In this document: positions 299 through 20,581 of the stretch, in pieces | How the letters are laid out: each line of letters opens with the position of its first letter | How positions within the stretch are numbered: position 1 is the stretch's first letter | NCBI RefSeq assembly: GCF_011762485.1 | Contig: NZ_JAAKGI010000001.1 | Coordinates: 385,962 to 449,961, forward strand | DNA length: 64,000 nt | Source of the DNA: Yeosuana marina | Lineage (GTDB): Bacteria; Bacteroidota; Bacteroidia; Flavobacteriales; Flavobacteriaceae | Direction of reading: 5' to 3' | Program-made: the position numbers and the translations under genes | Notes under the pieces: generated by a model | What the model was told of the DNA's origin: nothing | The model's input: only the letters and a program-made list of their open reading frames with translations | The model's database searches: none

Positions 299-527
299 TC
301 AGTTAATACTGGTGCTTTTTTATTTTATAAAACTATTCTATAAGATTTCTGTATACTTTGTTTAATATTTTTTAAGTTAAAAATTTGAGCAAGGTGTTGG
401 TTTAAATTCAACTATTTTATTACTTGTTTCACTTTACAGAAAGCAATCCTCAATAAATGATATTCAAAACTAAATTGTTACTAGCTGTTTCTAATTTTAT
501 TAATGATTTACAATATATTATATCAAT

Positions 528-561
528 GGATGTAATAATATTTTGTAAATTTATTACATCC
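528..561. promoter_or_regulatory. Perfect 11-bp inverted repeat (GGATGTAATAA-N12-TTATTACATCC) in the AT-rich region upstream of the PAS kinase gene
   Basis: The palindrome was read directly from the sequence. It lies ~160 bp upstream of the 717 start codon. Confidence 0.3.
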
Positions 562-716
562 AATTTATTAAATAACTTCAAATTCCAGAATAAACAGTTT
601 GCTATTATAAAGTAAATAATGGATTATTATGCCCGTGTTTCTCATATGAAAAGTTAGAGCCAATCCTAAAAAGAAATGCTATAATTGAAAATCCATGTTA
701 AAAAACCAAATTTATT

Positions 717-4829: not shown

Positions 4830-4920
4830 AAAACACCTAAAAATTAAAATCACAGATAGCATTTTATCTATAATTAGCAAGAAGACAAAGGCTTATATTA
4901 AAATATAGGTCTTTCTTGTT

Positions 4921-6381
4921 TTAATTTGAGAGTGTGTTTTCAGCCATTTTTACAAGTTGCCAATACGGAGGTAAATAGCCGTTTAATTTTTTAAAAGTCT
5001 CAATTTTTACTTTTGTTTGTGTCTTACAATTTTGAAATTTTTCAACAAAATTATTATTCTTTAATGCGCTTATAGCGTCCATTCCTTCTGGAATCACGCC
5101 TTCTTTGCCCATAATATTAAATATATAGGAGTAGCCTTTAATAACTCTTGCTAGCGGCAGCATAAAAATATTGTAATCTAGTTTTGCTCCATTATTAGCT
5201 TCACTTAGTAAAGCATCCATTACGGCATTATCTAGATGGTCTTGAAAAAGAATATCTTTATCCCTCCATTCTGCAACAACACTTAACATAGGGTCATATT
5301 CGAGGTCCGATGGCATTTGAGTTACAAAATTCTCTACTCCAAAAGTATTAAGCCAGTCCATAACTCCATCTGACGAGATAGTCGATTTAAACTCCCATAA
5401 CGATATCCCAAACTGTTTATAGGCATAAGAACCAACTTCAGAACAAAACATAGCACTAGAATCGTAATAATCCATTTTGAAGTCATATGGGATATGTCTA
5501 GTTTGCGATTCCTTAAAAATATATGAAGAAACCTGATATGGAAGCATGGGATTTGATTCTATTTGAGGTAAATCATTTCTAGGTCTCATAACTATAAAGC
5601 GCAATTTTTTATCATTCAAATAAGTTTTAAGTGATGATATTGCAACACCTTTTTCAATGTGAGCCTCCACAAAATAAGGTTTATTTGTAGCTTTATCAAT
5701 ATGAATAATTGCAACGTGCGAAAAATTTCCAGGATAATCATTTCCTCTTGAAATAAATGCTGAAACTTCGGCACCACCCCGACTTATCAATAAATCTCCA
5801 CTATGAACTTTTATTCCTAGGATATTAACCGAAGGCGTTACAGATGGTTCTTCAGTTACATACATTGTAGAGATAAAATCATTATTATTTGATTGTAATA
5901 AAACTTCTTCTACAGATGCTCTCATACCATATAGTAAGCGGTAAGATGTATTACGGGCATTTATATGATTCATATTCCAAAAGCGAGAATCTGATTTTAT
6001 CTTTTTTCTAACCCTATTATAGTAGTTAATATACCAATCTGATTTCTTTGGTTGTGCGGCAATTAAGGGGGTTATGTTAAAGAAATTAGTCTCAATCAAA
6101 CTGTATAGGCTATCGTCTGGTTTGCTTATTGTGTTTTCAAGAGTATTTAATAGAGCATCTGCGTTATAACTCAAGTCATTTACAATAGAATCCAATTCTA
6201 TAGAAGGAATTCTTTTAGCTTCTTGAAATCTTATTTCTAAACCTTCCCAAAGGCTATCTTGGTTCCAAATAAAAGGGTTATGGGTTGCCTTTTGAATGTT
6301 TTTTTCATTTGAGGGAAAGGGAATAAGCAGTAAAACATATAAACCTAAAATAACTAATAAAAAAATATAAATTTTTTTCAT
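4921..6381 (-). CDS. Membrane-anchored hypothetical protein. Its C-terminal half resembles a permuted papain-like (YiiX/YaeF, NlpC/P60 superfamily) domain.
   Basis: N-terminal TM helix MKKIYIFLLVILGLYVLLLIPF. GDLLISRG...FSHVAIIHID (His) precedes SAMFCSEVGSY (Cys), the His-before-Cys order typical of permuted YiiX-like enzymes. The domain call is tentative. Confidence 0.45.
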   Translation of the reverse strand: MKKIYIFLLVILGLYVLLLIPFPSNEKNIQKATHNPFIWNQDSLWEGLEIRFQEAKRIPSIELDSIVNDLSYNADALLNTLENTISKPDDSLYSLIETNFFNITPLIAAQPKKSDWYINYYNRVRKKIKSDSRFWNMNHINARNTSYRLLYGMRASVEEVLLQSNNNDFISTMYVTEEPSVTPSVNILGIKVHSGDLLISRGGAEVSAFISRGNDYPGNFSHVAIIHIDKATNKPYFVEAHIEKGVAISSLKTYLNDKKLRFIVMRPRNDLPQIESNPMLPYQVSSYIFKESQTRHIPYDFKMDYYDSSAMFCSEVGSYAYKQFGISLWEFKSTISSDGVMDWLNTFGVENFVTQMPSDLEYDPMLSVVAEWRDKDILFQDHLDNAVMDALLSEANNGAKLDYNIFMLPLARVIKGYSYIFNIMGKEGVIPEGMDAISALKNNNFVEKFQNCKTQTKVKIETFKKLNGYLPPYWQLVKMAENTLSN

Positions 6382-6558
6382 GATGTTATATAATTTACAA
6401 AGCGTTAAAACTAATAATCGAAACCTTCCAAATATAATCCTTTCGTCCGAATAATAATTAATTGTTTAAGTTGCTTACAATTACTTCTTATTTTGTTGTG
6501 GATATAGTTATTTATTTTGTTTCTTTTGCATAATATATTTTTCGAGTAATCAATAATT

Positions 6559-6630
6559 GGCTCCATAGTTCAAGGGATAGAACAAAAGTTTCCTAAACTT
6601 TAGATCCAGGTTCGAATCCTGGTGGAGTCA
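6559..6630 (+). tRNA. tRNA-Arg (anticodon CCU)
   Basis: 72-nt cloverleaf. Acceptor GGCTCCA/TGGAGTC with one G-U pair. D-arm GTTC-AAGGGATA-GAAC. Anticodon arm AAAGT-TTCCTAA-ACTTT gives anticodon CCT. T-arm CCAGG-TTCGAAT-CCTGG. Discriminator A, no encoded CCA. Confidence 0.85.
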
Positions 6631-6670
6631 CAAAAAACGAATCTAGTTGATTTTTTAAAAACTATAAATT

Positions 6671-7645
6671 ATGATTTTAAACGCACCTATTACATTTTAT
6701 CCCATATTAAAAGAACGTATTTGGGGAGGAGAAAAACTAACTACAGTATTTAAAAAAGAATCAGATAAAACTAATATTGGCGAAAGTTGGGAGCTTTCAG
6801 ATGTTGAGGGAGATGTCTCTGTGGTTGCTTCAGGTGAATTACAAGGAAAAACTTTAAAAGAACTAATTAAGACCTATAAAGGCGCATTGGTTGGAGAAAA
6901 AGTTTATAAAACGTTTGGTAACGATTTCCCTATTCTTATAAAATATATCGACGCTAAAACACCGCTGTCTATTCAAGTACATCCAAATAATGAATTAGCA
7001 AAGGAGCGCCATAATTCATTTGGAAAAAATGAAATGTGGTATATTATGCAAGCCGATAAAAATGCTGAATTAATTGTAGGGTTTAATCAAGATATTGACA
7101 AAAAAACCTACTTAAGTAAGTTAGAGGAAGGCAACGTATTGGAAATATTAAATTCCGAAAAAATATCTAAAGGTGATACGTTTTACATTCCAACAGGAAG
7201 AGTCCATGCCATTGGTGCCGGGGTTATGCTTGCTGAAATTCAACAAACTTCTGATGTAACGTATAGAATTTATGATTACAAACGAGTTGATGCTACAACA
7301 GGAAAAGAGAGAGAACTGCATACAGATTTAGCAGTAGATGCCATAGATTACAAACAGTATGATAACTACAAAACATCTTATGAGCTTAAGAAAAACGACT
7401 CTAGTGAGTTAGTGTATTCTCCTTATTTTAAAACTAACATTATTCAACTTGAAGGAGCCGTTAAGAAAGATTACAGTAATTTAGATTCGTTTGTTATTTA
7501 TATGTGTGTTGAAGGGGATGCTGTTGTAACCTGTAATGACAAACAGTTTTCATTACAAGTAGGTCAAACCATGCTTATTCCTGCAGCCGTTAGTACTATT
7601 GAATTACAATCTGAAAACGCCAGAATTTTAGAAGTATTTCTTTAA
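6671..7645 (+). CDS. manA: Type I mannose-6-phosphate isomerase (cupin-type PMI)
   Basis: ERIWGGEKL, GESWELSD, LSIQVHPN, NEMWYIMQA and HAIGAGVMLAEIQQTSDVTYRIYDY motifs are typical of class I PMI. Confidence 0.85.
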   Translation: MILNAPITFYPILKERIWGGEKLTTVFKKESDKTNIGESWELSDVEGDVSVVASGELQGKTLKELIKTYKGALVGEKVYKTFGNDFPILIKYIDAKTPLSIQVHPNNELAKERHNSFGKNEMWYIMQADKNAELIVGFNQDIDKKTYLSKLEEGNVLEILNSEKISKGDTFYIPTGRVHAIGAGVMLAEIQQTSDVTYRIYDYKRVDATTGKERELHTDLAVDAIDYKQYDNYKTSYELKKNDSSELVYSPYFKTNIIQLEGAVKKDYSNLDSFVIYMCVEGDAVVTCNDKQFSLQVGQTMLIPAAVSTIELQSENARILEVFL

Positions 7646-7659
7646 AAGTTGGCTAATTA

Positions 7660-8013
7660 TTATTGATGAATATACTGTTTGGCTTGCTCAACAACTTGTT
7701 TTGAGTTGCCAATAAATATGTGGTCATTGGCAATAATAACAGGTCTGCTTAAAAAGGTATAGTGGTCAAGAATATAATGTTTGTAATCGCGTTCTTCAAG
7801 CGCTTGGTTTTTTAAATCCATTTCTTTGTAAAGTTTGGAACGCTTACTAAAAAGAGCTTCATAACTACCTGCAAGATCTTTCATTTCATCTAATTGCTTA
7901 ACCGTTATTTCTTCAGTTTTAATGTCTTGTAAAACAAATTCTGAAGGCAGATTCAACTCTTTTAAAATTCTAATACAGGTACTACATGTTTTTAGGTAAT
8001 ATACTTTTTTCAT
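7660..8013 (-). CDS. ArsC/Spx/YffB-family thioredoxin-fold protein (arsenate reductase family)
   Basis: 117 aa. N-terminal MKKVYYLKTCSTC with CxxC at residues 10-13. Confidence 0.65.
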   Translation of the reverse strand: MKKVYYLKTCSTCIRILKELNLPSEFVLQDIKTEEITVKQLDEMKDLAGSYEALFSKRSKLYKEMDLKNQALEERDYKHYILDHYTFLSRPVIIANDHIFIGNSKQVVEQAKQYIHQ

Positions 8014-8083
8014 CTGTTAATAATTTAAAAACAAAATAAAGCAATTATATCATTTAACCTATATTTATAAAAAAATAAATACC

Positions 8084-8548
8084 ATGCATTTTACCTTAGA
8101 AGTACTTTCAAATACCCGGAAATTTTTCAAAAAATATTTAGAAACTTTATCTCTTGAAGACTTAAATAAAATCCCAGAAGGCTTTAATAATAACATTATC
8201 TGGAATGTTGGGCACATCCTTGTTACGCAACAGCTATTAGCCTATAAACTATCAGGATTACCAATGATGGTTAGCGATACGTTAATTGCTAAGTATATGA
8301 AAGATACAAAACCTGAAGGATTTATAAATCAACAAGAAGTTGATGAAATAAAAGAGCTACTATTTTCTACAATTGAAAAAACAAAAGAAGATTTTAATAA
8401 CGGCCTCTTTAAAAACTTTAAAGAATATACGGTTTCAACAACAGGCAACACCTTAACAACTATTGATGAGGCTTTCCAGTTTATTTTATTTCATGAAGGT
8501 ATGCATTTAGGCTATGTTATGGCCTTATTGCGTGGTGTCAAAAACTAA
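8084..8548 (+). CDS. DinB/YfiT-like putative metal-dependent four-helix-bundle protein
   Basis: 154 aa. Conserved His-containing helices (WNVGHILVTQQ, FHEGMHLGYV) resemble the DinB_2 family. Confidence 0.45.
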   Translation: MHFTLEVLSNTRKFFKKYLETLSLEDLNKIPEGFNNNIIWNVGHILVTQQLLAYKLSGLPMMVSDTLIAKYMKDTKPEGFINQQEVDEIKELLFSTIEKTKEDFNNGLFKNFKEYTVSTTGNTLTTIDEAFQFILFHEGMHLGYVMALLRGVKN

Positions 8549-9244
8549 AAGTGAGTTTACATCATCATACGGGATGGTGAATTCTAAAGTACCTGCAGAA
8601 TAGGCTGCTATTTCGTAGGTATTATACAATAAAATAATTCCATCTTCGGTATAACCAATATTGGCTGGAAGCACAAAGTTTTCAGAATCAAAAACCGCAT
8701 CTTTTTCGTCAATATTATTTTGGTAATAGGTTTTAGCAAGCTTAAAAAAGGCTTTTTTATCGTTAAATAAATCAGTGTTTGCGATTAATTTTCCTGTTTT
8801 TGCATTAAAGTTTAAAAATGAAATGTTTAAGTTTCCGTGGGCGCCACCAGTATCCATATAGGACGTTAGTGCAATGCTTATTAAGCTTTCAGACTGGTAC
8901 ATAATATCGCCATCTATTTGAGCTTCCCAGTGTTGATCGCTATCAGGAAAATCATTTTTAAAGGCATCAAATTCTTGATTAAAGGCATCAATACTTTTTT
9001 TGATTGTTTCTATTTTAGAATCATCATCATATTCTCCAATTTGTAAAGAAGCAATCACCTTGTTTTCAATAATTGAATTGATAGAATTTACGGCAGGTGT
9101 ATCTCCTTCAGCTAAAGGAATATTGACTTCGACTGCTGAGTTATTACCTCCGGTTATGCTGGTTTCTTTAAAAGTAATTAGGGGATCCTCTTTACAAGAA
9201 ATGAAAGTAAAAAAACAACAAAGAATAAAAAGATAGCGTTTCAT
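8525..9244 (-). CDS. Lipoprotein, DUF4163/DUF3298 (RsiV-like) family
   Basis: Signal peptide with lipobox Cys (FTFISCKED). Central DTGGAHGN motif and a YNTYEIAAY..G tail are characteristic of DUF3298. Confidence 0.6.
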   Translation of the reverse strand: MKRYLFILCCFFTFISCKEDPLITFKETSITGGNNSAVEVNIPLAEGDTPAVNSINSIIENKVIASLQIGEYDDDSKIETIKKSIDAFNQEFDAFKNDFPDSDQHWEAQIDGDIMYQSESLISIALTSYMDTGGAHGNLNISFLNFNAKTGKLIANTDLFNDKKAFFKLAKTYYQNNIDEKDAVFDSENFVLPANIGYTEDGIILLYNTYEIAAYSAGTLEFTIPYDDVNSLLVFDTTQ

Positions 9245-9331
9245 TGAGATACAAGATTAAACACCCTAAAGGTAAATATTGCATTTGAATACACCGAATT
9301 ATAAAGTACTTTTGTACAAATACATCATAAA

Positions 9332-10471
9332 ATGAAGTTTAACACAAAAGTTATACATGGTGGCCAAGAGCACGATTTAGCTTATGGTGCTGTAATGCCT
9401 CCAATTTATCAAACAACGACTTATGCACAAACAACTCCCGGAGGACATAAGGGTTATGAATATTCAAGAACTCATAATCCGACACGACATGCTCTAGAGA
9501 GTGCGTTTGCAAGTATTGAAAACGGTAAATATGGACTAGCATTTGGGTCGGGGTTAGCTGCTATTGATGCTGTAATGAAGCTATTAAAGCCTGGCGATGA
9601 GGTTATTTCAACTAATAATTTATACGGAGGCTCTTATAGGTTATTCACTAAAATATTTCAAGACTTTGGCATTAAATTTCATTTTGTTGAAATGGAGAAT
9701 GTATCTCATATTGAAACCTACATCAATGATAATACAAAACTTATCTGGGTAGAAACGCCAACGAACCCGATGATGAATATTATTGATATTCAAGCAGTGT
9801 CAATACTTTCAAAAAAGCACCATATTTTATTAGCAGTCGATAATACATTTGCCACTCCCTATTTGCAACAACCTTTAGAACTGGGAGCAGATATCGTGAT
9901 GCATTCCGCCACCAAATATTTGGGAGGCCATAGCGATGTTGTTATGGGAGGCTTGGTCGTTAACGACAAGGCGTTGGCAGATAAGTTATATTTTATTCAA
10001 AATGCCAGTGGAGCTATTTGTGGTCCACAAGATAGTTTTCTAGTATTACGTGGTATTAAAACTTTGCATGTAAGAATGCAGCGTCACTGTGAAAATGGAA
10101 AAGCTATAGCTTATTTCTTGAAGACGCATCCAAAAATTGATAAGGTTTTTTGGCCTGGTTTTGAAGATCATCCTAATCATGCTATTGCAAAATCTCAAAT
10201 GAAAGATTTTGGAGGTATGCTATCATTTACAATAACAGGAAATGATTATAAGCAAGCTATTAAAACAGTTGAAAACCTTAAAGTTTTTACTTTGGCAGAA
10301 TCATTAGGGGGCGTAGAGTCACTTTGTGGTCATCCAGCAAGTATGACACATTCTAGTATTCCAAAATCGGAACGTGAAAAAATAGGAATTGTAGATTCTT
10401 TAATACGGTTAAGTGTTGGTATAGAAGATGTAGATGATTTGATTGCCGATTTACAACAGGCTTTGTCTTAA
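9332..10471 (+). CDS. PLP-dependent trans-sulfuration enzyme (cystathionine gamma-synthase/beta-lyase family)
   Basis: 379 aa. PLP-lysine motif HSATKYLGGHSD. Cys/Met-metabolism PLP enzyme length and architecture. Confidence 0.85.
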   Translation: MKFNTKVIHGGQEHDLAYGAVMPPIYQTTTYAQTTPGGHKGYEYSRTHNPTRHALESAFASIENGKYGLAFGSGLAAIDAVMKLLKPGDEVISTNNLYGGSYRLFTKIFQDFGIKFHFVEMENVSHIETYINDNTKLIWVETPTNPMMNIIDIQAVSILSKKHHILLAVDNTFATPYLQQPLELGADIVMHSATKYLGGHSDVVMGGLVVNDKALADKLYFIQNASGAICGPQDSFLVLRGIKTLHVRMQRHCENGKAIAYFLKTHPKIDKVFWPGFEDHPNHAIAKSQMKDFGGMLSFTITGNDYKQAIKTVENLKVFTLAESLGGVESLCGHPASMTHSSIPKSEREKIGIVDSLIRLSVGIEDVDDLIADLQQALS

Positions 10472-11274
10472 TCCAGATAAAAAATATAGCCTACATTAAA
10501 CCATAGTAACCAATCATTATATTTATTATAATCTAATTGATGGTTTAATCCATCAACCCAGTCATTAAAATAATATTGCCATCTCAAGTCTAGCATTAAA
10601 TCAGACGTGGTATTAAGTTTATATCGAACACCCACACTTGAAACAACAGAAAACGTACTTCCAGAAGAGGCATCAACGGATCCCGGAGCCCATTGAGAAT
10701 AAAAATTGGTAGGGTTTAACACATTACCATAAGCAAGAGGGTTTGGATTGTCATAGGTTGTGCTAACTTCTGGAGAAAAAAAGGTATAATGCACACCCAA
10801 ACTAACAAATGGTGCAAATCTAGGCGTAAAAGCTTCAAAAGCATGAATACTTAAAGGATAAAATTCTAATTGTGTTCCAATATCAAAATTATTAGCCACT
10901 CCTTTGTGCCCTCTTAGCCTTTTGGCATCTTCAGAGGTTTTACTAGGGTCAACCCATTGTCCAAAATGTTCTAATTTAGTTTTATTCCAGGATATTTCAT
11001 TACGCACTTTAAAGTGATCATTAAAATAAGAGTCTCTATTAATTAAATTTGAGTAATTTCTTCGGTAAGAAAAGTTAAAGTATTGAACAACACCTATACC
11101 AAAACCCATATTACCAATGTTTGTCGCCTTGTCAGTTCTACTACCAAAATCTGATCTAAATTGGACAGGACCAGCAATAATGCCAATTTCTGGTGAAAAA
11201 CCAAATTGAGAGAACGCTGCTTGCGTTATTATAAACACGCAAAACGCAGCAGCTAAATGTTTAAAATTAAACAT
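10468..11274 (-). CDS. Hypothetical outer-membrane beta-barrel protein
   Basis: Signal peptide MFNFKHLAAAFCVFIITQAAFSQ. Alternating aromatic/polar composition. C-terminal YIFYLD. Confidence 0.4.
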   Translation of the reverse strand: MFNFKHLAAAFCVFIITQAAFSQFGFSPEIGIIAGPVQFRSDFGSRTDKATNIGNMGFGIGVVQYFNFSYRRNYSNLINRDSYFNDHFKVRNEISWNKTKLEHFGQWVDPSKTSEDAKRLRGHKGVANNFDIGTQLEFYPLSIHAFEAFTPRFAPFVSLGVHYTFFSPEVSTTYDNPNPLAYGNVLNPTNFYSQWAPGSVDASSGSTFSVVSSVGVRYKLNTTSDLMLDLRWQYYFNDWVDGLNHQLDYNKYNDWLLWFNVGYIFYLD

Positions 11275-11473
11275 ACTATGGTTTATTTTTTTGAGGCATT
11301 AACTTAGCAAATATATAAAAACAGAATTTAGAATCAAATCATTATAAAAACGTAGAAATAGCAATAAAATTATTTATTATGAAATTATAAAAAAATCGGC
11401 TTTTTTTTGAAGATATCGTATCTTTGTTATAATATATTGAAAAGTTCATAATTATTAACTCAAATTTGAATAA

Positions 11474-12817
11474 ATGAAAAGTAATATTGAAGCATTTTTA
11501 GATCTTGTAAAAGAAAGAAATGGTCAAGAACCAGAGTTTTTACAAGCCGTTCAGGAAGTTGCAGAAACAGTAATTCCTTACATCGTCGAGCACGATATTT
11601 ATTACGGTAGAAACATTCTATTAAGAATGGTAGAACCAGAAAGAGCGTTAACTTTTAGGGTGTGCTGGGTAGATGATTCTGGTGAAATTCAAGTAAACAG
11701 AGGATATAGAATTCAAATGAATTCAGCTATAGGCCCGTTTAAAGGCGGTTTGCGTTTTCATCCAACGGTTAACATGAGTATTTTAAAGTTTTTAGCTTTT
11801 GAACAAGTATTTAAAAATGCGTTGACCACACTACCAATGGGAGGTGGAAAAGGGGGAAGTGATTTTGACCCTAAAGGTAAAAGTGATGATGAAATTATGC
11901 GTTTTTGTCATTCATTTATGAGTGAATTATTTAGACATATAGGCCCTAATACAGATGTGCCAGCAGGAGATATTGGAGTAGGTGCCAGAGAAATTGGCTT
12001 CCTATTTGGTATGTACAAAAAATTAAGAAATGAATTTACTGGGGTTTTAACAGGTAAAGGATTATCTTGGGGAGGCTCTTTAATACGACCAGAAGCAACA
12101 GGTTATGGAACTGTTTATTTTGCAGAAAGTATGTTAAAAACTAAAGAGGAAGATTTAAATGGTAAGGATGTTGTTATATCTGGATCTGGTAATGTAGCGC
12201 AATATGCTGCAGAAAAATGTCTTCAGTTAGGCGCTAAAGTTTTAACATTATCTGATTCTTCTGGATATATTTATGATTCGGAAGGAATAGATGCAGATAA
12301 GTTAGCGTATGTAATGAATCTAAAAAACGTGAAAAGAGGGCGAATAAGTGAATATTTAGAAAACTATCCTCATGCTAAATTTGTAAAAGGAAAAACACCA
12401 TGGGAAGTTAAGTGCGATATAGCTTTACCATGTGCCACACAAAATGAACTTCATGAAGCCGATGCTAAAATGCTGTTGAAAAATGGCTGTATTTGTGTGA
12501 GTGAAGGAGCTAATATGCCATCAACTATTGATGCTGTACATGCATTCCAAAAAGCTAAAATTTTATATGCGCCAGGAAAAGCATCTAATGCAGGTGGTGT
12601 TGCAACGTCTGGTTTAGAAATGACTCAAAACTCGTTGCGTTTTAACTGGACGAGAGATGAAGTAGATTTAAAACTGAAAAGCATCATGTCTAACATTCAC
12701 GATGCATGTATAGAGTTTGGTACAGAAGAAGATGGTTATATTAACTATGTAAAAGGAGCCAATATTGCAGGATTTGTTAAAGTGGCTGATGCCATGTTAG
12801 CGCAAGGTATCGTGTAA
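11474..12817 (+). CDS. gdhA: NADP-specific glutamate dehydrogenase
   Basis: KGGLRFHP, GGGKGGSDFDPKGKSD and GSGNVAQYAAEK...SDSSG are near-identical to E. coli GdhA motifs. Confidence 0.9.
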   Translation: MKSNIEAFLDLVKERNGQEPEFLQAVQEVAETVIPYIVEHDIYYGRNILLRMVEPERALTFRVCWVDDSGEIQVNRGYRIQMNSAIGPFKGGLRFHPTVNMSILKFLAFEQVFKNALTTLPMGGGKGGSDFDPKGKSDDEIMRFCHSFMSELFRHIGPNTDVPAGDIGVGAREIGFLFGMYKKLRNEFTGVLTGKGLSWGGSLIRPEATGYGTVYFAESMLKTKEEDLNGKDVVISGSGNVAQYAAEKCLQLGAKVLTLSDSSGYIYDSEGIDADKLAYVMNLKNVKRGRISEYLENYPHAKFVKGKTPWEVKCDIALPCATQNELHEADAKMLLKNGCICVSEGANMPSTIDAVHAFQKAKILYAPGKASNAGGVATSGLEMTQNSLRFNWTRDEVDLKLKSIMSNIHDACIEFGTEEDGYINYVKGANIAGFVKVADAMLAQGIV

Positions 12818-12846
12818 AACAAAACATCGTTATAGTTTAAATAAAA

Positions 12847-15800
12847 ATGCATAAAAATAGACTACCAGATTTAAGAAATTACGAATTTGAAGAAGTTGCA
12901 TTTGGAGAATTAATGCAAAACAGAATTAATAAAGTTCTTATAGTTTGTTCTAACTATGATTTTTATATGTTAGAAGAAGATGGTAGAATAGATGAACGCA
13001 TTTTTAACGAATATACAGATTTAAACTTACGATATCCTCCAAATTTCGTACATGCAAACTCTGCTAAAAGAGCTATAAAACTAATGGCTGAAGTTAAAAT
13101 AGACTTAGTCATAACGTGGTTAGATATTGGTAATTATAACGCATTCGAAACTTCAAAAGAGATAAAAGGGGCCTTTCCGGAGGTCCCAATTGCTGCTCTA
13201 AGTTTTTACTCTTCAGAATTAAGAAGTAAATTAGAAAAGAGTAATAAAGGCATTATCGATACTGTGTTTCACTGGAATGGTAATGTTGATATTTTCTTGG
13301 CAATTATAAAATTGACAGAAGATAGAATGAATGCTAAAAGAGATATTAATCAAATTGGTGTAAAAGCCATCTTGATGGTAGAAGACTCTTTAAAATTCTA
13401 TTCAAGATATTTACCCATTATCTATAAAATTCTTTTAAAACAAACGCGCGCTTTTATGTCTGAAGGCTTAAATGAGCACAGAAGCATGATGCTTATGCGA
13501 GGGCGCCCAAAAATGTTATTGGCAACAACTTATGAAGAAGGCTTAGAACTTTTTGAAAAGTATAAAAGTAATTTACTAGGCGTAATTTCTGATGTTAATT
13601 ATTTTAAAGATGGCAAAAGAGACCCAGAAGCAGGGTTTGAATTTTTAAAATATGTACGAAGTTCTCAACGTTATTTTCCTTTTTTAATTCAATCGTCCGA
13701 TAACAATAATGAAGAAAAAACCCATGAATTAAAAGGTAAATTTTTATACAAGCACTCAGAAACATTAGGAACAGATTTAAAAAACTATATCAATAAATAT
13801 TTTTCATTTGGTGATTTTGAGTTTTGGGATCCAGAACAAATGAAAGTGTTGGCGGTTGTAAAAAATTTAAGTGAACTCCAAAAAGCTTTAAAAACGGTTA
13901 GTAAAGCGTCTATTGCGTATCATGCTAAGCGAAGTGAATATTCTAAATGGCTCAAATCTAGAGCCTTATTCCCTTTAGCAAATCTATTTAGTAATGTAGA
14001 GTATGATGATTTTGACGACCTAGAACAAATTAGAGAATTTTTAATAAAAGCTATAAGGGCTTATAGTATTTATAGGTCTAAAGGTGTTATCGTAAAATTT
14101 GATAAAGAGAAGTATGATGAATATTTAGGTTTTGCCAGAATAGGAGATGGTTCTCTTGGAGGTAAAGGACGCGGACTAGCTTTTATAGATTCATTTTTAA
14201 AACGTCATAAGCTTTTTAGGAAATATGAAGACGTTTATATTTCTATACCCAGAACCGTTGTAATAAGTACTGAAGTTTTTGATGAGTTTATTGAACGATA
14301 CGATTTAATTAGGTTTGCTGCTAACTCAAATAGCGATGAAGAAATATTAAATAAGTTTATTTCAAAACCTCTGCCTCAATGGGTTTTAGAGGATATTCAA
14401 GCATTTCTAAATATTGTAAAAAGACCTATAGCAGTTCGTTCTTCTAGTGTTCTAGAAGATTCCCATTTTCAGCCTTTTGCGGGTGTGTTTGCAACATATA
14501 TGATTCCAAACACCAACGACAGCCAAATGCTGGAAACCCTATCTAATGCTATTAAATCGGTGATGGCATCAGCCTTTTTTCAAGCAAGTAAGGCCTATTT
14601 AAAGGCAACATCGCATACCATAGAAGAAGATAAAATGGCTGTTATTCTTCAAGAATTAACAGGTAAACAATATGATGATATTTACTATCCAAATATTTCG
14701 GGAGTTGCAAGATCTATTAACTTCTATCCTATTGGAAATGAAAAACCAAATGAAGGAATTGCGAATATTGCTTTAGGTTTGGGTGAAATTATAGTTGGTG
14801 GTGGCCGTAGTTTGCGTTTTTCGCCTTACCATCCTAAAAAAGTCTTGCAATTGTCTTCGCCAGATTCAACCCAGCGTGATACACAGCAATATTTTTACGG
14901 TCTAGATTTAGATCCTAAAAGTTATAAAGTTTCAATAAATGAGGGTGTTAATAAAAAGAAGGTTACTTTAAGACAAGCTAAAAACCATCCATCTTTAAAA
15001 TTTGTTGCTTCCACTTACGATTTGCAAAATAATATCATCAGACCTGGTGTTTTACACGATGGAATACGCGTAGTAACTTTTGATAATGTTTTAAAATACG
15101 GTTCGTTTCCGTTGCCAGAAATCTTAAAAGATTTATTGCACGTTGGGCAACGAGAAATGAGAAACCCAATAGAAATTGAGTTTGCTGTAAACCTAGATGT
15201 TCCCAAAGGGCAACCAAGAATTTTTAGTTTTTTACAAATAAGACCCATTGTTGAAAGTGTTGTAACCAATAATGAATTACCTGAAGACTTTAATGTTGAT
15301 GATACTATTATATATACAGAATCTGCATTAGGAAATGGCACTTATGATTATATAAAGAATTTTGTGTATGTAAAGCCAGAAACATTTAACCCTGCAAACA
15401 CAAGAGAAATAGCTTATGCGGTCGAGAATATAAATAAAAAGTTTACTGACAAAGATGAACAATACATTTTAGTTGGACCAGGACGATGGGGCTCAAGCGA
15501 CCCTTGGCTAGGAATTCCTGTTATTTGGCCTCAAATTTCTTCGGCTAAAATAATAGTCGAAGCTGGTTTAAATGATTTTAGAATCGACCCAAGTCAAGGC
15601 ACACATTTTTTTCAAAATTTAACCTCTTTCAAGGTTGGCTATTTTACTATTAATCCTTTTATGAATGACGGCTCTTTTGATTTAGACTATTTAAATAAAC
15701 AAGAAGCCTGTTATGAAGATGAGTACTTAAGACACATTTGTTTTAAGGATCCATTAACTATTATTATTGAAGGTAAAAGCAATAAAGCAGCTATTTTCAA

Positions 15801-15879
15801 GTCTGGATTTAAAATCACAAGGCACCTAGAATCCTTAGAAAATTCTATAGATGATTTACCGCCTGAGGGGTTTATGTAA
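12847..15879 (+). CDS. Multidomain protein with two N-terminal receiver-like (pseudo-receiver) domains and a PEP/pyruvate-binding PPDK_N-type domain
   Basis: 1010 aa. REC-like segments are KVLIVCSNYD... and KAILMVEDSLKFYSRYLPIIYKIL. Glycine loop IGDGSLGGKGRGLAFID is typical of the PEP synthase/PPDK nucleotide-binding domain. It starts 29 bp after the gdhA stop, which suggests co-transcription. Confidence 0.55.
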   Translation: MHKNRLPDLRNYEFEEVAFGELMQNRINKVLIVCSNYDFYMLEEDGRIDERIFNEYTDLNLRYPPNFVHANSAKRAIKLMAEVKIDLVITWLDIGNYNAFETSKEIKGAFPEVPIAALSFYSSELRSKLEKSNKGIIDTVFHWNGNVDIFLAIIKLTEDRMNAKRDINQIGVKAILMVEDSLKFYSRYLPIIYKILLKQTRAFMSEGLNEHRSMMLMRGRPKMLLATTYEEGLELFEKYKSNLLGVISDVNYFKDGKRDPEAGFEFLKYVRSSQRYFPFLIQSSDNNNEEKTHELKGKFLYKHSETLGTDLKNYINKYFSFGDFEFWDPEQMKVLAVVKNLSELQKALKTVSKASIAYHAKRSEYSKWLKSRALFPLANLFSNVEYDDFDDLEQIREFLIKAIRAYSIYRSKGVIVKFDKEKYDEYLGFARIGDGSLGGKGRGLAFIDSFLKRHKLFRKYEDVYISIPRTVVISTEVFDEFIERYDLIRFAANSNSDEEILNKFISKPLPQWVLEDIQAFLNIVKRPIAVRSSSVLEDSHFQPFAGVFATYMIPNTNDSQMLETLSNAIKSVMASAFFQASKAYLKATSHTIEEDKMAVILQELTGKQYDDIYYPNISGVARSINFYPIGNEKPNEGIANIALGLGEIIVGGGRSLRFSPYHPKKVLQLSSPDSTQRDTQQYFYGLDLDPKSYKVSINEGVNKKKVTLRQAKNHPSLKFVASTYDLQNNIIRPGVLHDGIRVVTFDNVLKYGSFPLPEILKDLLHVGQREMRNPIEIEFAVNLDVPKGQPRIFSFLQIRPIVESVVTNNELPEDFNVDDTIIYTESALGNGTYDYIKNFVYVKPETFNPANTREIAYAVENINKKFTDKDEQYILVGPGRWGSSDPWLGIPVIWPQISSAKIIVEAGLNDFRIDPSQGTHFFQNLTSFKVGYFTINPFMNDGSFDLDYLNKQEACYEDEYLRHICFKDPLTIIIEGKSNKAAIFKSGFKITRHLESLENSIDDLPPEGFM

Positions 15880-16057
15880 TGTAAATCTATTTAATTTTAG
15901 GTAGTACATATATACTTTAAACCGCGTAACATAATGTGTTATAAAATTTCAACTTAATTTATTGAATTAATAAAAAATGCGAACATAAATCATGAATTAT
16001 TGATTTTAATATTGGTATTTTTGCATTATATTTTAAACACTTTTATATTTAAAGATC

Positions 16058-17395
16058 ATGAATGTAAAAAACATAATGACAAACCTTGAAACCAAGCATC
16101 CTGGTGAAAAGGAATACTTACAAGCAGTACATGAAGTATTGGAATCTATTGAAAGTATTTATAACGAAAACCCACAATATGAGTCCGCTAAAATTATCGA
16201 ACGATTAGTTGAGCCAGACCGTGTTTTAACCTTCAGAGTTTCTTGGTTAGATGATGATGAGCAAGTACATGTTAACCTAGGTTACAGAATACAATTTAAC
16301 AATGCTATAGGCCCTTACAAAGGTGGTATCAGACTGCATCCGAGTGTTAATTTAAGTATTTTAAAATTTTTGGGTTTTGAACAAACTTTTAAGAACGCAT
16401 TAACAACGTTGCCTTTAGGAGGGGCCAAAGGCGGATCTGATTTTAATCCAAAAGGAAAATCAGATACGGAAATTATGCGTTTTTGTCAAGCTTTCATGCT
16501 AGAGTTATGGCGCATTATTGGACCTAATACAGATGTTCCTGCAGGAGATATTGGTACCGGAGGAAGAGAAATTGGGTATATGTATGGCATGTACAAAAAA
16601 CTTAAATCAGAAAACACAGGAGTTCTTACTGGTAAAGGGCTCAATTGGGGAGGTAGTTTGATTAGACCTGAAGCTACTGGTTTTGGAGCTACCTATTTTA
16701 CCAATGAAATGTTAGTATCTAACAACGATTCTTTCAAAGGTAAAATAGTAACGGTTTCTGGTTTTGGTAATGTAGCTTGGGGGGTAGCTCTTAAAGTAAC
16801 AGAACTAGGAGGTAAAGTAGTAACAATATCTGGTCCTGATGGTTATATTTATGATGAAAAAGGGTTAGATGCCGATAAAATAGACTATTTGCTAGCGCTT
16901 AGAGCGTCTAATAACGATATTGTTTCTCCGTATGCAGATGAGTTCCCAGAAGCCATATTTGTTCCAGGCAAAAAACCTTGGGAGGTAAAATGTGATATAG
17001 CTATGCCAAGTGCTACACAAAATGAATTAAATGGTGAGGATGCGGCACAATTAATTGCTAATGGCGTTAAATATGTTGCTGAAGTGTCAAACATGGGATG
17101 TACTCCAGAAGCTATTGAAGTGTTGCACGACGCAAAAATTCCTTTTGGTCCAGGAAAAGCAGTTAATGCTGGTGGTGTTGGTGTTTCTGGTTTAGAAATG
17201 TCTCAAAACGCCATGAAATTAAATTGGACCGTAGATGAAGTGGATGCCAAATTACATCATATGATGTCATCAATTCATATGGCATGTATAAAATTTGGTA
17301 CTGAAGATGACGGTTATGTAAACTATGTAAAAGGTGCCAATATTGCTGGATTTATTAAAGTAGCAGATGCTATGTTAGACCAAGGTATTGTATAA
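16058..17395 (+). CDS. gdhA: Glutamate dehydrogenase, second paralog
   Basis: KGGIRLHP, GGAKGGSDFNPKGKSD. About 70% identical to the 11474..12817 product. Differs in the dinucleotide-fold region (GFGNVAWGVALK...SGPDG). Confidence 0.9.
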   Translation: MNVKNIMTNLETKHPGEKEYLQAVHEVLESIESIYNENPQYESAKIIERLVEPDRVLTFRVSWLDDDEQVHVNLGYRIQFNNAIGPYKGGIRLHPSVNLSILKFLGFEQTFKNALTTLPLGGAKGGSDFNPKGKSDTEIMRFCQAFMLELWRIIGPNTDVPAGDIGTGGREIGYMYGMYKKLKSENTGVLTGKGLNWGGSLIRPEATGFGATYFTNEMLVSNNDSFKGKIVTVSGFGNVAWGVALKVTELGGKVVTISGPDGYIYDEKGLDADKIDYLLALRASNNDIVSPYADEFPEAIFVPGKKPWEVKCDIAMPSATQNELNGEDAAQLIANGVKYVAEVSNMGCTPEAIEVLHDAKIPFGPGKAVNAGGVGVSGLEMSQNAMKLNWTVDEVDAKLHHMMSSIHMACIKFGTEDDGYVNYVKGANIAGFIKVADAMLDQGIV

Positions 17396-17415: not shown

Positions 17416-17447
17416 AAAAAGCTTCCTTTATTGAGGGAGCTTTTTTT
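17416..17447 (+). terminator. Rho-independent terminator after gdhA paralog 2
   Basis: AGCTTCC-tttattga-GGGAGCT stem (7 bp with one G-U) followed by TTTTTTT. Confidence 0.5.
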
Positions 17448-17516: not shown

Positions 17517-19862
17517 ATGTTTAAAAGAATAGTTGTATTTGCAATTTATCTCTTTCCGCTCTGTTATTTTGCTCAAGACTTTTCTGGGCTTTGGAAAGGC
17601 TATTTTTCGTTTTACAATATTAAAGACGTTGTTCAAGGCAATAATAAAATTTATGGAGCTTCAGAAAATGCTGTTTTTAGCTATGATACACAGACTCATG
17701 ATATCAAAGAAATTACGACGGTTAACGGGTTGTCTGGAGAGCAAATATCTACCATTTATTACAGCGAAGCTTATCAATTATTGATGATCGGTTATGAAAA
17801 CGGACTCATAGAAATCGCATTTGATAACGATGATAATGTACTAACTCTTGTAGATATTATAGACAAGGCAACCATACCACCAACAAACAAAAGAATCAAT
17901 CACTTTAACGCTTATGGCAATGTAGTGTATGTGGCTACAAATTATGGAATATCTGTTTTTAATTTAGATAGGCTAGAGTTTGGAGACACCTATTTTATTG
18001 GAAATTTAGGAAGTCAGACCAAAGTAAATCAAACAAGCATTTTTGGCGATTATATGTATGCGGCTTGCCAAGATGGAAACGGATTGCGAAAAGCACTTAT
18101 TTCAAATCCTAATCTCATAGATTATCAAAATTGGCAAACCGTTACAACGGGTGATTTTTTGGCTGTTGAAGCTGTGCAAGATAATTTGTACGCCATAAGA
18201 ACCAACAGAAGGCTTTATAGCGTTATAAATGATGTTTTAAGTGAATTAGTATTATATGATAACCCACCGCTGGATGTAAAATCGGTTAATGATAATTTAA
18301 TAGTCACCACCAAAAGCAATGTTTTTGTGTATGATGCTAATTTTAATATCCTTTCTCAAATAGGCCTAAATGCAGACTATAATACAACGTATTCTTCAGC
18401 AAGCCTTGTGTCAGATAATGTATATATAGGAACAAACGATTTTGGAGTGTTAAAAACGGTATTACTATCGCCAGTTACTTTTGAAGAGGTACATCCTGAT
18501 GGACCCTTATTAAACACCCCGTTTTCTATAAAAGCAACACCCAACAATCTTTGGGTAACATATGGAGATTATACTATTTATTACAACCCTTCACCTTTTC
18601 GAACTTATGGAATAAGTCATTTGAAAGATGAGCGGTGGGTTAATATTCCTTATGATAGTCTATTTAATTCAAGAAATTTAAACACGATTGCTATAAACCC
18701 TCTTAATACGAGTCAAGTTTTTATTAGTTCTTTTCAGGATGGGTTATTAGAAGTCGAAAATAATCAAGCAGTAATCAGGTACGATCAAACTAACAGTGGT
18801 TTAGAATCTCTTTACTTGCCTGGTAGTCCAAACTATATTAGTTTAAGGTTGTCTGGATTAGTTTTTGATAGTGCAGGATTACTGTGGTCTATAACATCTT
18901 TACTTAATAAGCCTTTAAAGTCTTATAACCCAAGCACCAAAGAATGGAGAAGCTACGATTTTACAAATATTATTAATGATCCTATTCAAGATAATTTGGG
19001 GTTTAATAATTTAGTTATTGATCCTTCAGGAACAAAATTCATCTCTTCATTTTCTAAAGGTGTTATCGGTTTTAATGAAAATAATGGAAATCCATTATTA
19101 AAAAATATAAGTGAGGAAGCTAATTTACCAGATAAGTCTGTCAGGACGGTTGCTTTAGATAAAAGAAATCAACTTTGGATAGGCACTCATAAAGGCTTAC
19201 GAATTTTATACAATACGTCCAACTTTTTTACTGATGATAATGTGCAAGCCGATGATATTATTATTCTAGAAGATGGTATTCCAAAAGAATTATTATTTGA
19301 ACAATTTATTTCGGATATTGAAGTCGATGGATCTAATAACAAGTGGATAGGCACCATTGGTTCTGGGCTTTTTTATTTGAGTTATGATGGTCAAAAAACA
19401 ATCCATCATTTTACTAAGGATAATTCACCGCTGCCATCAAATGATATACAAGATGTTTCCATTGATAATGCAACGGGAGAGGTTTATATTGCAACTAGTA
19501 AAGGCTTAGTATCCTTTCATTCAGGAGGCTCTAATCCGCAGGAAAACTTACAAAGTGCTTATGTATATCCAAATCCTGTTCGTCCAACGTTTAATATCGT
19601 AGATCAGAAAGTCAAAATTAAAGACATTTCAGAAAATGTAAATATTAAAATAACCGATATTGAAGGTAATTTGGTGGCCGAAGCCCAATCGAGAACCAAT
19701 TTACGTTATAATGGCTATAATCTTGAAATTGATGGCGGAACTGCCTATTGGAACGGTAAAAACCTTGCTAATAACGTGGTAGCGTCTGGGGTTTATTTAG
19801 TGATGCTTTCCGATTTGGATACCTACGAAACCAGAGTTATAAAATTAATGGTCGTTAGATAA
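17517..19862 (+). CDS. Secreted T9SS cargo protein with beta-propeller (two-component-regulator propeller-like) repeats
   Basis: Signal peptide MFKRIVVFAIYLFPLCYFAQ. Repeated Y/W-rich propeller-like blades. C-terminal T9SS type-A sorting domain (YVYPNPV...GVYLVMLSD...RVIKLMVVR). Confidence 0.6.
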   Translation: MFKRIVVFAIYLFPLCYFAQDFSGLWKGYFSFYNIKDVVQGNNKIYGASENAVFSYDTQTHDIKEITTVNGLSGEQISTIYYSEAYQLLMIGYENGLIEIAFDNDDNVLTLVDIIDKATIPPTNKRINHFNAYGNVVYVATNYGISVFNLDRLEFGDTYFIGNLGSQTKVNQTSIFGDYMYAACQDGNGLRKALISNPNLIDYQNWQTVTTGDFLAVEAVQDNLYAIRTNRRLYSVINDVLSELVLYDNPPLDVKSVNDNLIVTTKSNVFVYDANFNILSQIGLNADYNTTYSSASLVSDNVYIGTNDFGVLKTVLLSPVTFEEVHPDGPLLNTPFSIKATPNNLWVTYGDYTIYYNPSPFRTYGISHLKDERWVNIPYDSLFNSRNLNTIAINPLNTSQVFISSFQDGLLEVENNQAVIRYDQTNSGLESLYLPGSPNYISLRLSGLVFDSAGLLWSITSLLNKPLKSYNPSTKEWRSYDFTNIINDPIQDNLGFNNLVIDPSGTKFISSFSKGVIGFNENNGNPLLKNISEEANLPDKSVRTVALDKRNQLWIGTHKGLRILYNTSNFFTDDNVQADDIIILEDGIPKELLFEQFISDIEVDGSNNKWIGTIGSGLFYLSYDGQKTIHHFTKDNSPLPSNDIQDVSIDNATGEVYIATSKGLVSFHSGGSNPQENLQSAYVYPNPVRPTFNIVDQKVKIKDISENVNIKITDIEGNLVAEAQSRTNLRYNGYNLEIDGGTAYWNGKNLANNVVASGVYLVMLSDLDTYETRVIKLMVVR

Positions 19863-20581
19863 TGATTGTTTCAACCCATGCAATTGTAATTTCAAAACTA
19901 CGATATCGCGATCATGATTTAATTGTAAAATGTTACACGCAGCAATACGGGGTGCTGAGTTTTTTATTACGAGGTGTTTTAAAAAGCAAAAAAGGACTTG
20001 CCAAAACAGCCTATTTTCAATTATTAACGCAATTACAATTGGTTATTGTTTATAACCCTAACAGGTCGTTGCACTCTATAAAAGAAGCCAAACTTAACCA
20101 TTTGTACAGCAGCTTACATTCTAATGTATCAAAAAGTGCTATCGTTATGTTTTTGGCCGAAGTGCTGTCAAGCATATTAAAGGAGGAAGAAGAAAACAGC
20201 ACGCTTTTTAGCTATATAGAAACCACTTTATTGTGGCTAGACACCCATACCGAATGTTCAAACTTTCATTTGCTTTTTTTATTAAACTTAACAAAATATC
20301 TCGGGTTTTATCCTGAAAACACCACCGTCGATTTCCCGTTTTTTAACCTTCAAGATGGTAAGTTTCAATTGAAGCCAATGGGACCTTATACAATATCTGG
20401 TGATAATTTTAATCTCTTAAAGCAATTACTTGATACTAAGTTTGATGAGTTATCTCAGTTAAAGATAAATTCCAAGCAGCGTCAAGCATTTTTAAACATG
20501 ATGCTACAGTATTACGAACTTCATTTGGGTGATTTTAAAAAACCAAAATCGCTACAGGTATTAAACCAGGTTTTTGGCTAA
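19862..20581 (+). CDS. recO: DNA repair protein RecO
   Basis: 239 aa. N-terminal MIVSTHAIVISKLRYRDHDLIVKCYT OB-fold segment typical of Bacteroidetes RecO. Confidence 0.7.
   Translation: MIVSTHAIVISKLRYRDHDLIVKCYTQQYGVLSFLLRGVLKSKKGLAKTAYFQLLTQLQLVIVYNPNRSLHSIKEAKLNHLYSSLHSNVSKSAIVMFLAEVLSSILKEEEENSTLFSYIETTLLWLDTHTECSNFHLLFLLNLTKYLGFYPENTTVDFPFFNLQDGKFQLKPMGPYTISGDNFNLLKQLLDTKFDELSQLKINSKQRQAFLNMMLQYYELHLGDFKKPKSLQVLNQVFG

Follow-up and report, generated by a model that had tools for sequence, protein, structure and literature searches.

A tandem-receiver protein with a PPDK_N ATP-grasp domain encoded between two glutamate dehydrogenase genes of Yeosuana marina: a possible glutamate dehydrogenase control module

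The locus

What might a protein with two receiver-like domains and an ATP-grasp domain be doing between two glutamate dehydrogenase (GDH) genes? The question is raised by a locus of the flavobacterium Yeosuana marina (contig NZ_JAAKGI010000001.1) that lies in the 64,000 bp stretch of DNA analyzed here (positions 385,962–449,961 of the contig; “the window,” in which all coordinates below are counted). There, the list of open reading frames (ORFs) shows three genes in the same direction on the + strand: GDH1 (11474–12817; 447 aa), the middle gene (12847–15879; 1010 aa), and GDH2 (16058–17395; 445 aa). GDH1 and GDH2 encode family-I hexameric GDHs that are predicted to prefer NADP(H) and NAD(H), respectively, and the middle gene encodes a tandem-receiver response regulator fused to an ATP-grasp domain and a swivel-like domain. 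Over its whole length the middle protein matches a Y. marina protein of the NCBI database with 100% identity. An earlier note on this DNA gave the same three ORF positions and the same 29 nt spacer between GDH1 and the middle gene, and it suggested a carbon/nitrogen-status regulatory module. The reading that we favor, with a probability of about one-half, is that the middle protein is an ATP-dependent phosphotransferase, gated by its receiver, whose dedicated role is the control of GDH and of the 2-oxoglutarate/glutamate node, by a mechanism that we infer below; we would put even odds on the locus as a whole being a GDH control module.

GDH is the main ammonia-assimilating enzyme of the Bacteroidota, including the dominant human gut genera, and is relied upon more than the glutamine synthetase–glutamate synthase (GS-GOGAT) route. 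A receiver joined to a phosphotransfer engine of the phosphoenolpyruvate (PEP) synthase type, and encoded beside a GDH gene, points to an undescribed control of this central nitrogen enzyme.

Domain architecture of the middle protein

An AlphaFold model of the middle protein, made from 75 homologs (mean pLDDT 83.9, pTM 0.78), has five modules, and residue conservation was counted in these 75 homologs and in 36 distant sequences of 31–47% identity. The first module (aa ∼27–170; 12925–13356, + strand) has the (βα)5 topology in the model and is a pseudo-receiver: C34-S35-N36 stands in place of the acidic pair and W143 in place of the Lys, and at position 93 (after β3) the Yeosuana lineage alone has Asp, most homologs having S, N, R, or H. 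The second (aa ∼172–320; 13360–13806, +) carries the canonical acceptor set of E179, D180, D249, S283, and K302. In the model this quintet lies at the C-terminal ends of β1, β3, β4, and β5 (E179 and D180 after β1, D249 at the end of β3, S283 at the end of β4, and K302 after β5), and the domain also has a long α1 and a β-hairpin inserted after D249 (codon 13591–13593). E179, D249, S283, and K302 are invariant in the 75 sequences, and the quintet is kept in 30–34 of the 36 distant ones. The earlier description of two receivers lacking a phospho-acceptor context thus holds for receiver 1 but not for receiver 2.

For receiver 1 the Pfam Response_reg match is weak (19.7 bits, under the cut-off of 30.2), but profile matches to solved receivers were found; a PF00072 match is precomputed for most of the homologs, and Foldseek searches with the model returned PleD (E = 5e-7) and other tandem-receiver regulators, together with the receivers of BfmR, KdpE, and PorX. 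Through receiver 2 the middle protein has the defining features of a response regulator. Since this receiver is canonical, the protein is most simply a two-component output and not a sensor itself.

Next to the receivers lies a β-hairpin and helical module (aa ∼321–428; 13807–14130, +) with conserved FGDFxF and YH..R...S.WL motifs, which is a candidate for ligand or acceptor binding. It weakly resembles DUF5752 (20.7 bits in the middle protein against a Pfam cut-off of 23; 25.5 bits in the homolog P0186). The PPDK_N-type ATP-grasp nucleotide-binding domain that follows (aa ∼429–805; 14131–15261, +) was recognized by both Pfam and Foldseek: PF01326 (PPDK_N) matches aa 436–803, which contain GGKGRGLAFID, with E = 1.9e-36 and 126.4 bits against a cut-off of 27, and the best Foldseek match of the whole model is HpeI (9goj; E = 7.5e-9), the ATP-grasp subunit of a two-component dikinase. 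The domain is essentially invariant at GGK440, R531-S-S-S, E537-D538, Q602, E776-x-E778, and Q797-x-R799, a pattern that we take to be that of the Lys, Arg, Asp/Glu-x-Glu, and Gln-x-Arg of the PPDK nucleotide site. In the earlier note it had been called a PEP/pyruvate-binding ATP-grasp; a PPDK_N ATP-grasp it is, but according to its Pfam description the domain binds AMP/ATP, not PEP/pyruvate.

The last module (aa ∼806–992; 15262–15822, +), formed by the ∼200 residues after the ATP-grasp, is probably a divergent phosphohistidine swivel domain, an assignment with moderate support. It contains the invariant motifs GPGRWGS (877–883) and PSQGTH920FFQN, with His920 (codon 15604–15606) at the N-terminus of a helix. 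The receiver 2 quintet, K440, R531, E776/E778, Q797/R799, G879/R880, and H920 are all invariant or near-invariant down to 31% identity. The output of the middle protein would then be a phosphotransfer engine of the PEP synthase/PPDK type, with the ATP-grasp and the swivel-like domain with its His920 as the working parts.

A Pfam scan of the middle protein gave no match to PEP-utilizers or PEP-utilizers_C and no PEP/pyruvate barrel, so that of the three profiles proposed in the earlier note for a check of this protein, PPDK_N is significant, Response_reg is sub-threshold, and PEP-utilizers has no match. With no PEP/pyruvate domain and a canonical receiver 2, the label “PEP-utilizer-like sensory protein” given there does not hold. 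The NCBIfam equivalogs for PEP synthase, rifampin phosphotransferase (RPH), and PigC/RedH match only the ATP-grasp stretch, at 16–64 bits against cut-offs of 598–1350 (the best is PRK06241.2-2 with 63.8 against 883; PigC scores 50.5 against 1300 and RPH 18.4 against 999). Because the curated cut-offs are failed and the defining domain is absent, the middle protein is not a member of the PEP synthase, PPDK, or RPH families, and a conventional PEP synthase or rifampin phosphotransferase was rejected as its identity.

By analogy, the middle protein looks like a PleD-like tandem receiver to which the ATP-grasp/swivel half of RPH or HpeHI has been fused. It shares with the RPH/HpeHI dikinases the PPDK_N ATP-grasp and its conserved nucleotide-site residues (HpeI is the best structural match, and there are profile matches to RPH), but these enzymes have a substrate-binding domain, for rifampin or phenol, and the more distantly comparable PEP synthase and PPDK have the PEP/pyruvate barrel, whereas the middle protein has neither. 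It adds two N-terminal receivers and the DUF5752-like module, and it has DPSQGTH where the dikinases have T/SxxGGxxxH. PleD-type regulators likewise have two receiver folds in a row, one of them with the acceptor set, fused to a nucleotide-using enzyme domain; in the middle protein the order is reversed, with the pseudo-receiver first, the output is ATP-grasp/swivel and not GGDEF, and receiver 2 differs from its PleD counterpart in the long α1 and the hairpin insertion. EI-Ntr (PtsP) has GAF, PEP-utilizers, and a PEP-binding barrel and uses PEP, whereas the middle protein has receivers and an ATP-grasp, lacks any PEP domain, and would use ATP. The domain architecture is probably new, and with it come a probable new acceptor class in the dikinase superfamily and a probable new type of two-component output.

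The family is large. When 1.8 billion cluster representatives were searched exhaustively, 4883 clusters (50% identity) were obtained with E < 1e-3, 1075 of them with E < 1e-30, and more than 100 of the best 150 matches have the same ∼1000 aa architecture at 31–47% identity. Members occur in Flavobacteriaceae and many Bacteroidales (Bacteroides, Phocaeicola, Prevotella, Alistipes, Parabacteroides, Muribaculaceae, and Paludibacter), and also in Ignavibacteriota, Zixibacteria, Aminicenantes, Cloacimonetes, Phycisphaerae, and deltaproteobacterial metagenome-assembled genomes (MAGs); in a Bacteroidota genome scan at least 592 genomes had a relative. The database names of these homologs are “hypothetical,” “CheY-like chemotaxis protein,” “PEP/pyruvate-binding,” “phosphoenolpyruvate synthase,” “histidine kinase,” and “response regulator.” Of these, “phosphoenolpyruvate synthase” and “histidine kinase” do not fit the domain content of the family; the name “PEP/pyruvate-binding,” like “phosphoenolpyruvate synthase,” goes back to an old name of PF01326 and not to what the protein contains. 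Five long homologs of 1130–1557 aa (P0183, P0186, P0209, P0259, and P0261) have N-terminal extensions of 150–570 aa that gave no significant Pfam match and that may be additional input domains.

Association with glutamate dehydrogenase genes

The strongest evidence for a link between the middle protein and GDH is the gene neighborhood across phyla. Two samples were compared: one from the Bacteroidota, in which the genome scan gave 79 loci and neighbors were counted over 80 loci, with both GDHs used in tblastn searches, and one of 11 contigs from other phyla, whose proteins were obtained with a profile of the most distant family members. A GDH gene lies within ∼5 kb of the middle-protein gene (X in the gene orders below) in 29–31 of the 80 Bacteroidota loci (36–39%), and it lies beside X in 8 of the 11 loci from other phyla (73%); the synteny that the earlier note had wanted checked in related genomes is thus recurrent. 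When all neighboring ORFs were clustered, GDH was the only strongly recurrent neighbor (29/80 loci). By a rough estimate, the chance that a gene present in one or two copies lies within ∼10 genes of another is well under 1%. In all, the GDH adjacency of this family spans at least six bacterial phyla.

The arrangements vary. The full GDH1-X-GDH2 order is present in Lutibacter, Gaetbulibacter, Polaribacter, and other Flavobacteriaceae and Bacteroidia assemblies and MAGs, with unrelated flanking genes; Gillisia, Alistipes, and Prevotella have X-GDH2 alone, and in Bacteroides, Phocaeicola, and Paludibacter GDH2 and X form a divergent pair; one Bacteroides locus (L049) has GDH2, X, and then a GDH1-type gene 3.4 kb further on. 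Outside the Bacteroidota, GDH is followed by X in Ignavibacteriota, Zixibacteria, Phycisphaerae, and one unclassified MAG; a deltaproteobacterial MAG (L085) has X-GDH-glmS, another MAG has X, GDH, a thiamine pyrophosphate (TPP) enzyme, an aminotransferase, and an aldehyde dehydrogenase in that order, and in an Aminicenantes locus GDH is two genes from X, beside a histidine kinase and an NtrC-type regulator. The most elaborate case is a metagenomic contig (L091, positions 1–11458) with GDH, X, a PAS/HisKA_3 kinase, a NarL-type regulator, GDH, X, a 64 aa ORF, and GDH, that is, two GDH-X pairs in tandem and an extra GDH. The window has a glmS-like gene of its own (54068–55915, − strand), with the glutamine amidotransferase and SIS domains of the L085 neighbor. 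A conserved third partner 3′ of X in Ignavibacteria and Zixibacteria was considered and rejected; the two large ORFs there are related neither to each other nor to the PorZ-like ORF of the window.

The second most recurrent neighbor is a two-subunit 2-oxoacid:ferredoxin oxidoreductase (OFOR, alpha and beta subunits; TIGR03710 and PorB_KorB), which in 11 loci lies always upstream and on the same strand, instead of or together with GDH; gene orders include OFORa-OFORb-X-GDH2 and OFORb-X′-X-SOD-GDH2. Two X paralogs stand in tandem in 13 Bacteroidales loci. In such pairs (L011, L021, L026, L031, L035, L038, and other Bacteroidales), which are often preceded by the two-subunit OFOR, the upstream copy has 35–38% identity and the downstream copy 50–53%, and the upstream copy has a longer predicted N-terminus (∼1050–1180 aa in ATG-based ORF calls).

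Within the Bacteroidota, the GDH beside X is of the type with Phe and Pro at the coenzyme-discriminating positions discussed below (F/P type) wherever the motif is readable. Outside them, five of the six neighboring GDHs examined are of the GSGNVAQ...SDS (NADP) type, and the Ignavibacteriota one is of the GFGNVAW...SGPDG type. A link specific to the NAD-type enzyme, which holds within the Bacteroidota, was therefore rejected overall, and, neighbors being of either type, the partner of X is family-I GDH in general. Most genomes have one GDH beside X and not a paralog pair; the Yeosuana locus combines both arrangements, with an NADP-type and an NAD-type GDH beside X. Recurrent adjacency thus bears out the part of the regulatory module suggested earlier that ties the middle protein to GDH, not a tie to the paralog pair in particular, and the regulation itself stays presumptive.

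In three loci (L083, L086, and L091) X has a histidine kinase as a direct neighbor, which fits a receiver that is phosphorylated in trans. In L086 (3854–9985) a dCache_1-HisKA-HATPase_c-receiver hybrid kinase and an OmpR-type regulator are directly upstream of X and co-directional with it, without a GDH in the vicinity; amino acids are common ligands of dCache domains. Most loci, including the immediate neighborhood in the window, have no adjacent histidine kinase. The window does contain a PAS-rich hybrid histidine kinase (717–4829, +; 1370 aa, with several PAS domains, HisKA, HATPase_c, and a receiver) 6.6 kb upstream of GDH1, and in the Flavobacteriaceae locus L001, GDH1 is preceded at a distance of ∼3.8 kb by a kinase/receiver tail that has 43% identity to this kinase. 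Such identity in a kinase/receiver tail is too generic for orthology of the two kinases to be concluded, and that the window kinase is the cognate kinase of receiver 2 is possible, on a similarity that is likewise too generic for a conclusion.

The two glutamate dehydrogenases

GDH1 and GDH2 are 60% identical (75% positives) over 444 aa, somewhat less than the ∼70% identity given in the earlier note. Both are full-length family-I enzymes with ELFV_dehydrog_N and ELFV_dehydrog domains (Pfam; E from 1e-51 to 1e-92), and both have the GGxKGGSDF-type catalytic Lys motif that had been noted before, GGGKGGSDFDPKGKSD at aa 123 of GDH1 and GGAKGGSDFNPKGKSD at aa 121 of GDH2. The best NCBIfam model for GDH1 is PRK09414, NADP-specific GDH (760.6 bits against a cut-off of 536), and for GDH2 it is PRK14030 (829 bits against 743). 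The closest solved relatives are the Escherichia coli NADP-GDH (4fcc/3sbo) for GDH1 and the Clostridium symbiosum NAD-GDH (1bgv) for GDH2, at the 55–60% identity level.

The dinucleotide-fold strings recorded in the earlier note are present as given. In residue-level alignment GDH1 has GSGNVAQYA...SDSSG in common with the E. coli NADP-GDH, and of the GFGNVAWGVA...SGPDG of GDH2, GFGNVAWG and SGPDGYIYD are common with the C. symbiosum NAD-GDH. At the positions equivalent to C. symbiosum F238 and P262 there is Ser/Ser in GDH1 and Phe/Pro in GDH2. In the C. symbiosum enzyme the F238S/P262S replacement of Griffin and Engel raised catalytic efficiency with NADPH ∼170-fold (PMC3157743). Because the differing positions are these two, the coenzyme assignment rests on experimentally tested determinants. 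From the sequences, GDH1 is predicted to prefer NADP(H) and GDH2 NAD(H), in line with the different cofactor preference proposed earlier, and GDH1 is presumably assimilatory and GDH2 catabolic. Bacteroides fragilis is reported to have an NAD(P)H GDH for assimilation and an NADH GDH that works in the reverse direction, and Bacteroides gdhA (NAD(P)H) and gdhB (NADH) are likewise two family-I paralogs that differ in coenzyme use and play opposite roles in physiology (PMC4539542). The Bacteroides locus L049 shows the same S/S and F/P signature and has the homolog of the middle protein between its two GDH genes; there the GDH genes are not co-directional and other genes lie between them, whereas in Yeosuana the three genes stand in tandem on one strand.

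A possible mode of action and its alternatives

The reading that we favor builds on what is observed: the domain architecture, the conservation of catalytic-type residues, the lack of a PEP/pyruvate domain, and the adjacency to GDH across phyla. What we infer is that the protein is catalytic, that His920 carries the phosphoryl group, what the acceptor is, and in which direction regulation works. A histidine kinase would phosphorylate Asp249 in response to nitrogen or carbon status, and this would release or block the ATP-grasp, which when active would phosphorylate His920 from ATP. From His920 the phosphoryl group would be handed on to an acceptor through which the activity of GDH is set, most likely the neighboring GDH or a factor bound to it. 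NADPH-dependent synthesis of glutamate and its NADH-linked breakdown would thereby be rebalanced at the post-translational level. If this is right, two-component signaling would gain a new output type and the dikinase superfamily a new substrate class, and the widespread misannotation of these proteins as “phosphoenolpyruvate synthase” or “histidine kinase” would be corrected. A family of thousands that is found beside GDH genes from Flavobacteria to Planctomycetes is, in any case, a testable candidate for post-translational control of GDH.

In its most specific form, the proposal would make the middle protein a two-component-controlled, dikinase-type protein kinase that phosphorylates hexameric GDH, and hence the founder of a new class of protein-modifying enzyme; this form we regard as unlikely. 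It would provide a post-translational on/off switch of nitrogen assimilation in the Bacteroidota and several other phyla. It would also account for a report of Baggio and Morrison from 1996, the title of which states that the activity of Bacteroides thetaiotaomicron GdhA depends on trans-acting gene(s) downstream of gdhA; its abstract is said to describe gdhA as transcribed, yet inactive in E. coli without a 3 kb downstream fragment. For the middle protein this is a lead only.

A number of points weigh against a GDH-controlling phosphotransferase. To our knowledge, no dikinase-type enzyme phosphorylates a protein. In L049 the gdhA-type gene is followed directly by genes for a PCMD lipoprotein and an outer-membrane barrel, not by X. 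Literature searches on the middle-protein family, the B. thetaiotaomicron locus tags, and Bacteroides GDH inactivation found no characterized member. About 60% of the Bacteroidota loci have no GDH within 5–7 kb of X, and in 3 of the 11 loci from other phyla there is none within 7 kb; the link to GDH is therefore not obligatory at the level of gene order. The C-terminal domain gave no significant Foldseek match and no swivel match in profile searches, and a motif scan for a real swivel-domain protein in the window or the compared loci, for use in a local profile-profile comparison, found none. Neither Pfam nor Foldseek recognized an acceptor-binding domain, be it a PEP/pyruvate barrel or a substrate-binding domain of the RPH/HpeH type. 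Finally, DPSQGTH stands where swivel domains have T/SxxGGxxxH, their canonical motif (PMC12167813).

Among the alternatives, the most probable is a receiver-regulated dikinase that acts on a small molecule. Such an enzyme, which we think unlikely, would phosphorylate a metabolite of the glutamate/2-oxoglutarate node or make a phosphorylated effector, converting ATP to AMP and Pi in the manner of RPH and HpeHI; the helical module at aa 321–428 would be its substrate site, and the adjacency to GDH would reflect a shared pathway and not direct control. Small molecules or glucans are the substrates of all PPDK_N enzymes characterized so far (PMC12167813), the ATP-grasp residues are intact, and the neighbors include OFOR, glmS, and the TPP enzyme, aminotransferase, and aldehyde dehydrogenase set. 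On the other hand, there is no domain like the PEP/pyruvate barrel or the RPH/HpeH substrate-binding domain, and the tandem duplication of GDH-X, together with a pairing of X and GDH that is one to one in different phyla, suggests an enzyme and its regulator more than a pathway step. The duplications and the partner GDHs of either coenzyme type argue for an enzyme with a regulator over a step in a pathway.

Quite unlikely, in our judgment, is a self-contained phosphorelay, in which the ATP-grasp and His920 would form an autokinase that passes its phosphoryl group to Asp249 of its own receiver or that of a tandem paralog, the receiver pair would contact GDH, and no separate histidine kinase would be needed. 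This would suit the many loci that lack an adjacent histidine kinase, the presence of a conserved His and a canonical acceptor Asp in one polypeptide, and the frequency of tandem paralogs in the Bacteroidales. It sits poorly with the kinases directly beside X in three loci and the PAS hybrid kinase upstream in the window, and we know of no precedent for phosphotransfer from a swivel His to a receiver Asp. A non-catalytic role, in which the ATP-grasp would only report energy charge by binding ATP, ADP, or AMP, and the protein, as a sensor or scaffold, would act allosterically on GDH without phosphotransfer, seems to us very unlikely: the non-canonical swivel motif, the C-terminal fold that Foldseek does not recognize, and the lack of an acceptor domain agree with it, but GGK, RSS, ExE, QxR, and His920 are kept in 94–100% of homologs at 31–47% identity, which is hard to explain by binding alone. 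A merely coincidental neighbor, that is, a conventional PEP synthase or RPH-like enzyme functionally unrelated to the GDH genes, which the earlier note had named as its counter-case and for which the name “phosphoenolpyruvate synthase” in some database records might speak, can be set aside as extremely improbable, being contradicted both by domain content (scores far under every PEP synthase, RPH, PigC, and RedH equivalog cut-off, two receivers, and no PEP/pyruvate domain) and by synteny (adjacency to GDH that recurs in three gene arrangements, amid unrelated flanking genes, in at least six phyla).

Transcription signals

The transcriptional organization of the locus differs among relatives. 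In the window, a candidate Bacteroidetes-type −7 box, TATCTTTG (11419–11426, +), lies 48 nt 5′ of the GDH1 start codon and is a match to the consensus pattern only; for this element we take TAnnTTTG as the Bacteroidetes −7 consensus. The spacer between GDH1 and the middle gene (12818–12846, +) is 29 nt long and has neither a terminator nor a good promoter box, and the middle gene is therefore probably co-transcribed with GDH1 here. In the relatives L001–L004, L009, and L072 the same spacer is 113–167 nt long and has a clear intrinsic-terminator hairpin, and a TATCTTGC-like box is conserved in most of them (it is not evident in L072). Among the loci compared, the short 29 nt form occurs only in the Yeosuana window and in Gaetbulibacter (L045), and the terminator hairpin and the promoter-like box have been lost from this spacer in the Yeosuana/Gaetbulibacter lineage.

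The spacer between the middle gene and GDH2 is 178 nt long and contains a conserved −7 box, TATTTTTG (TAnnTTTG; 16016–16023, +), preceded by a conserved TTTAATAT. A TAnnTTTG-type box can be read at the equivalent place upstream of GDH2 in 9 of 12 Flavobacteriaceae spacers, with no clean match in L002, L004, and L009, and GDH2 therefore has its own promoter. The TTTAATAT-like element directly 5′ of the box (together 16005–16023) recurs in most of the Flavobacteriaceae spacers compared and could serve as a binding site for a regulator or as an extension of the promoter. A strong intrinsic terminator, a 13 bp stem followed by a T-run, lies 3′ of GDH2 (17416–17445, +). A strict three-gene operon as a general feature was rejected, given the terminator and box between GDH1 and the middle gene in the relatives and the −7 box of GDH2 itself; judging from these spacers, what is conserved is the adjacency of the genes and not their operon structure.

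Other genes in the window

Downstream of GDH2, a gene for a PorZ-like type IX secretion β-propeller protein (781 aa) is followed by RecO (together 17517–20581, +), the start codon of RecO overlapping the PorZ-like stop codon by one base. An 834 aa ORF (23250–25754, −) gave no Pfam match at E ≤ 1e-5. Further along, a 1000 aa DNA polymerase III alpha-like protein is encoded beside a 405 aa ORF on the same strand (38991–43211, −), and this pair may be a mutagenesis cassette of the imuB-dnaE2 type.

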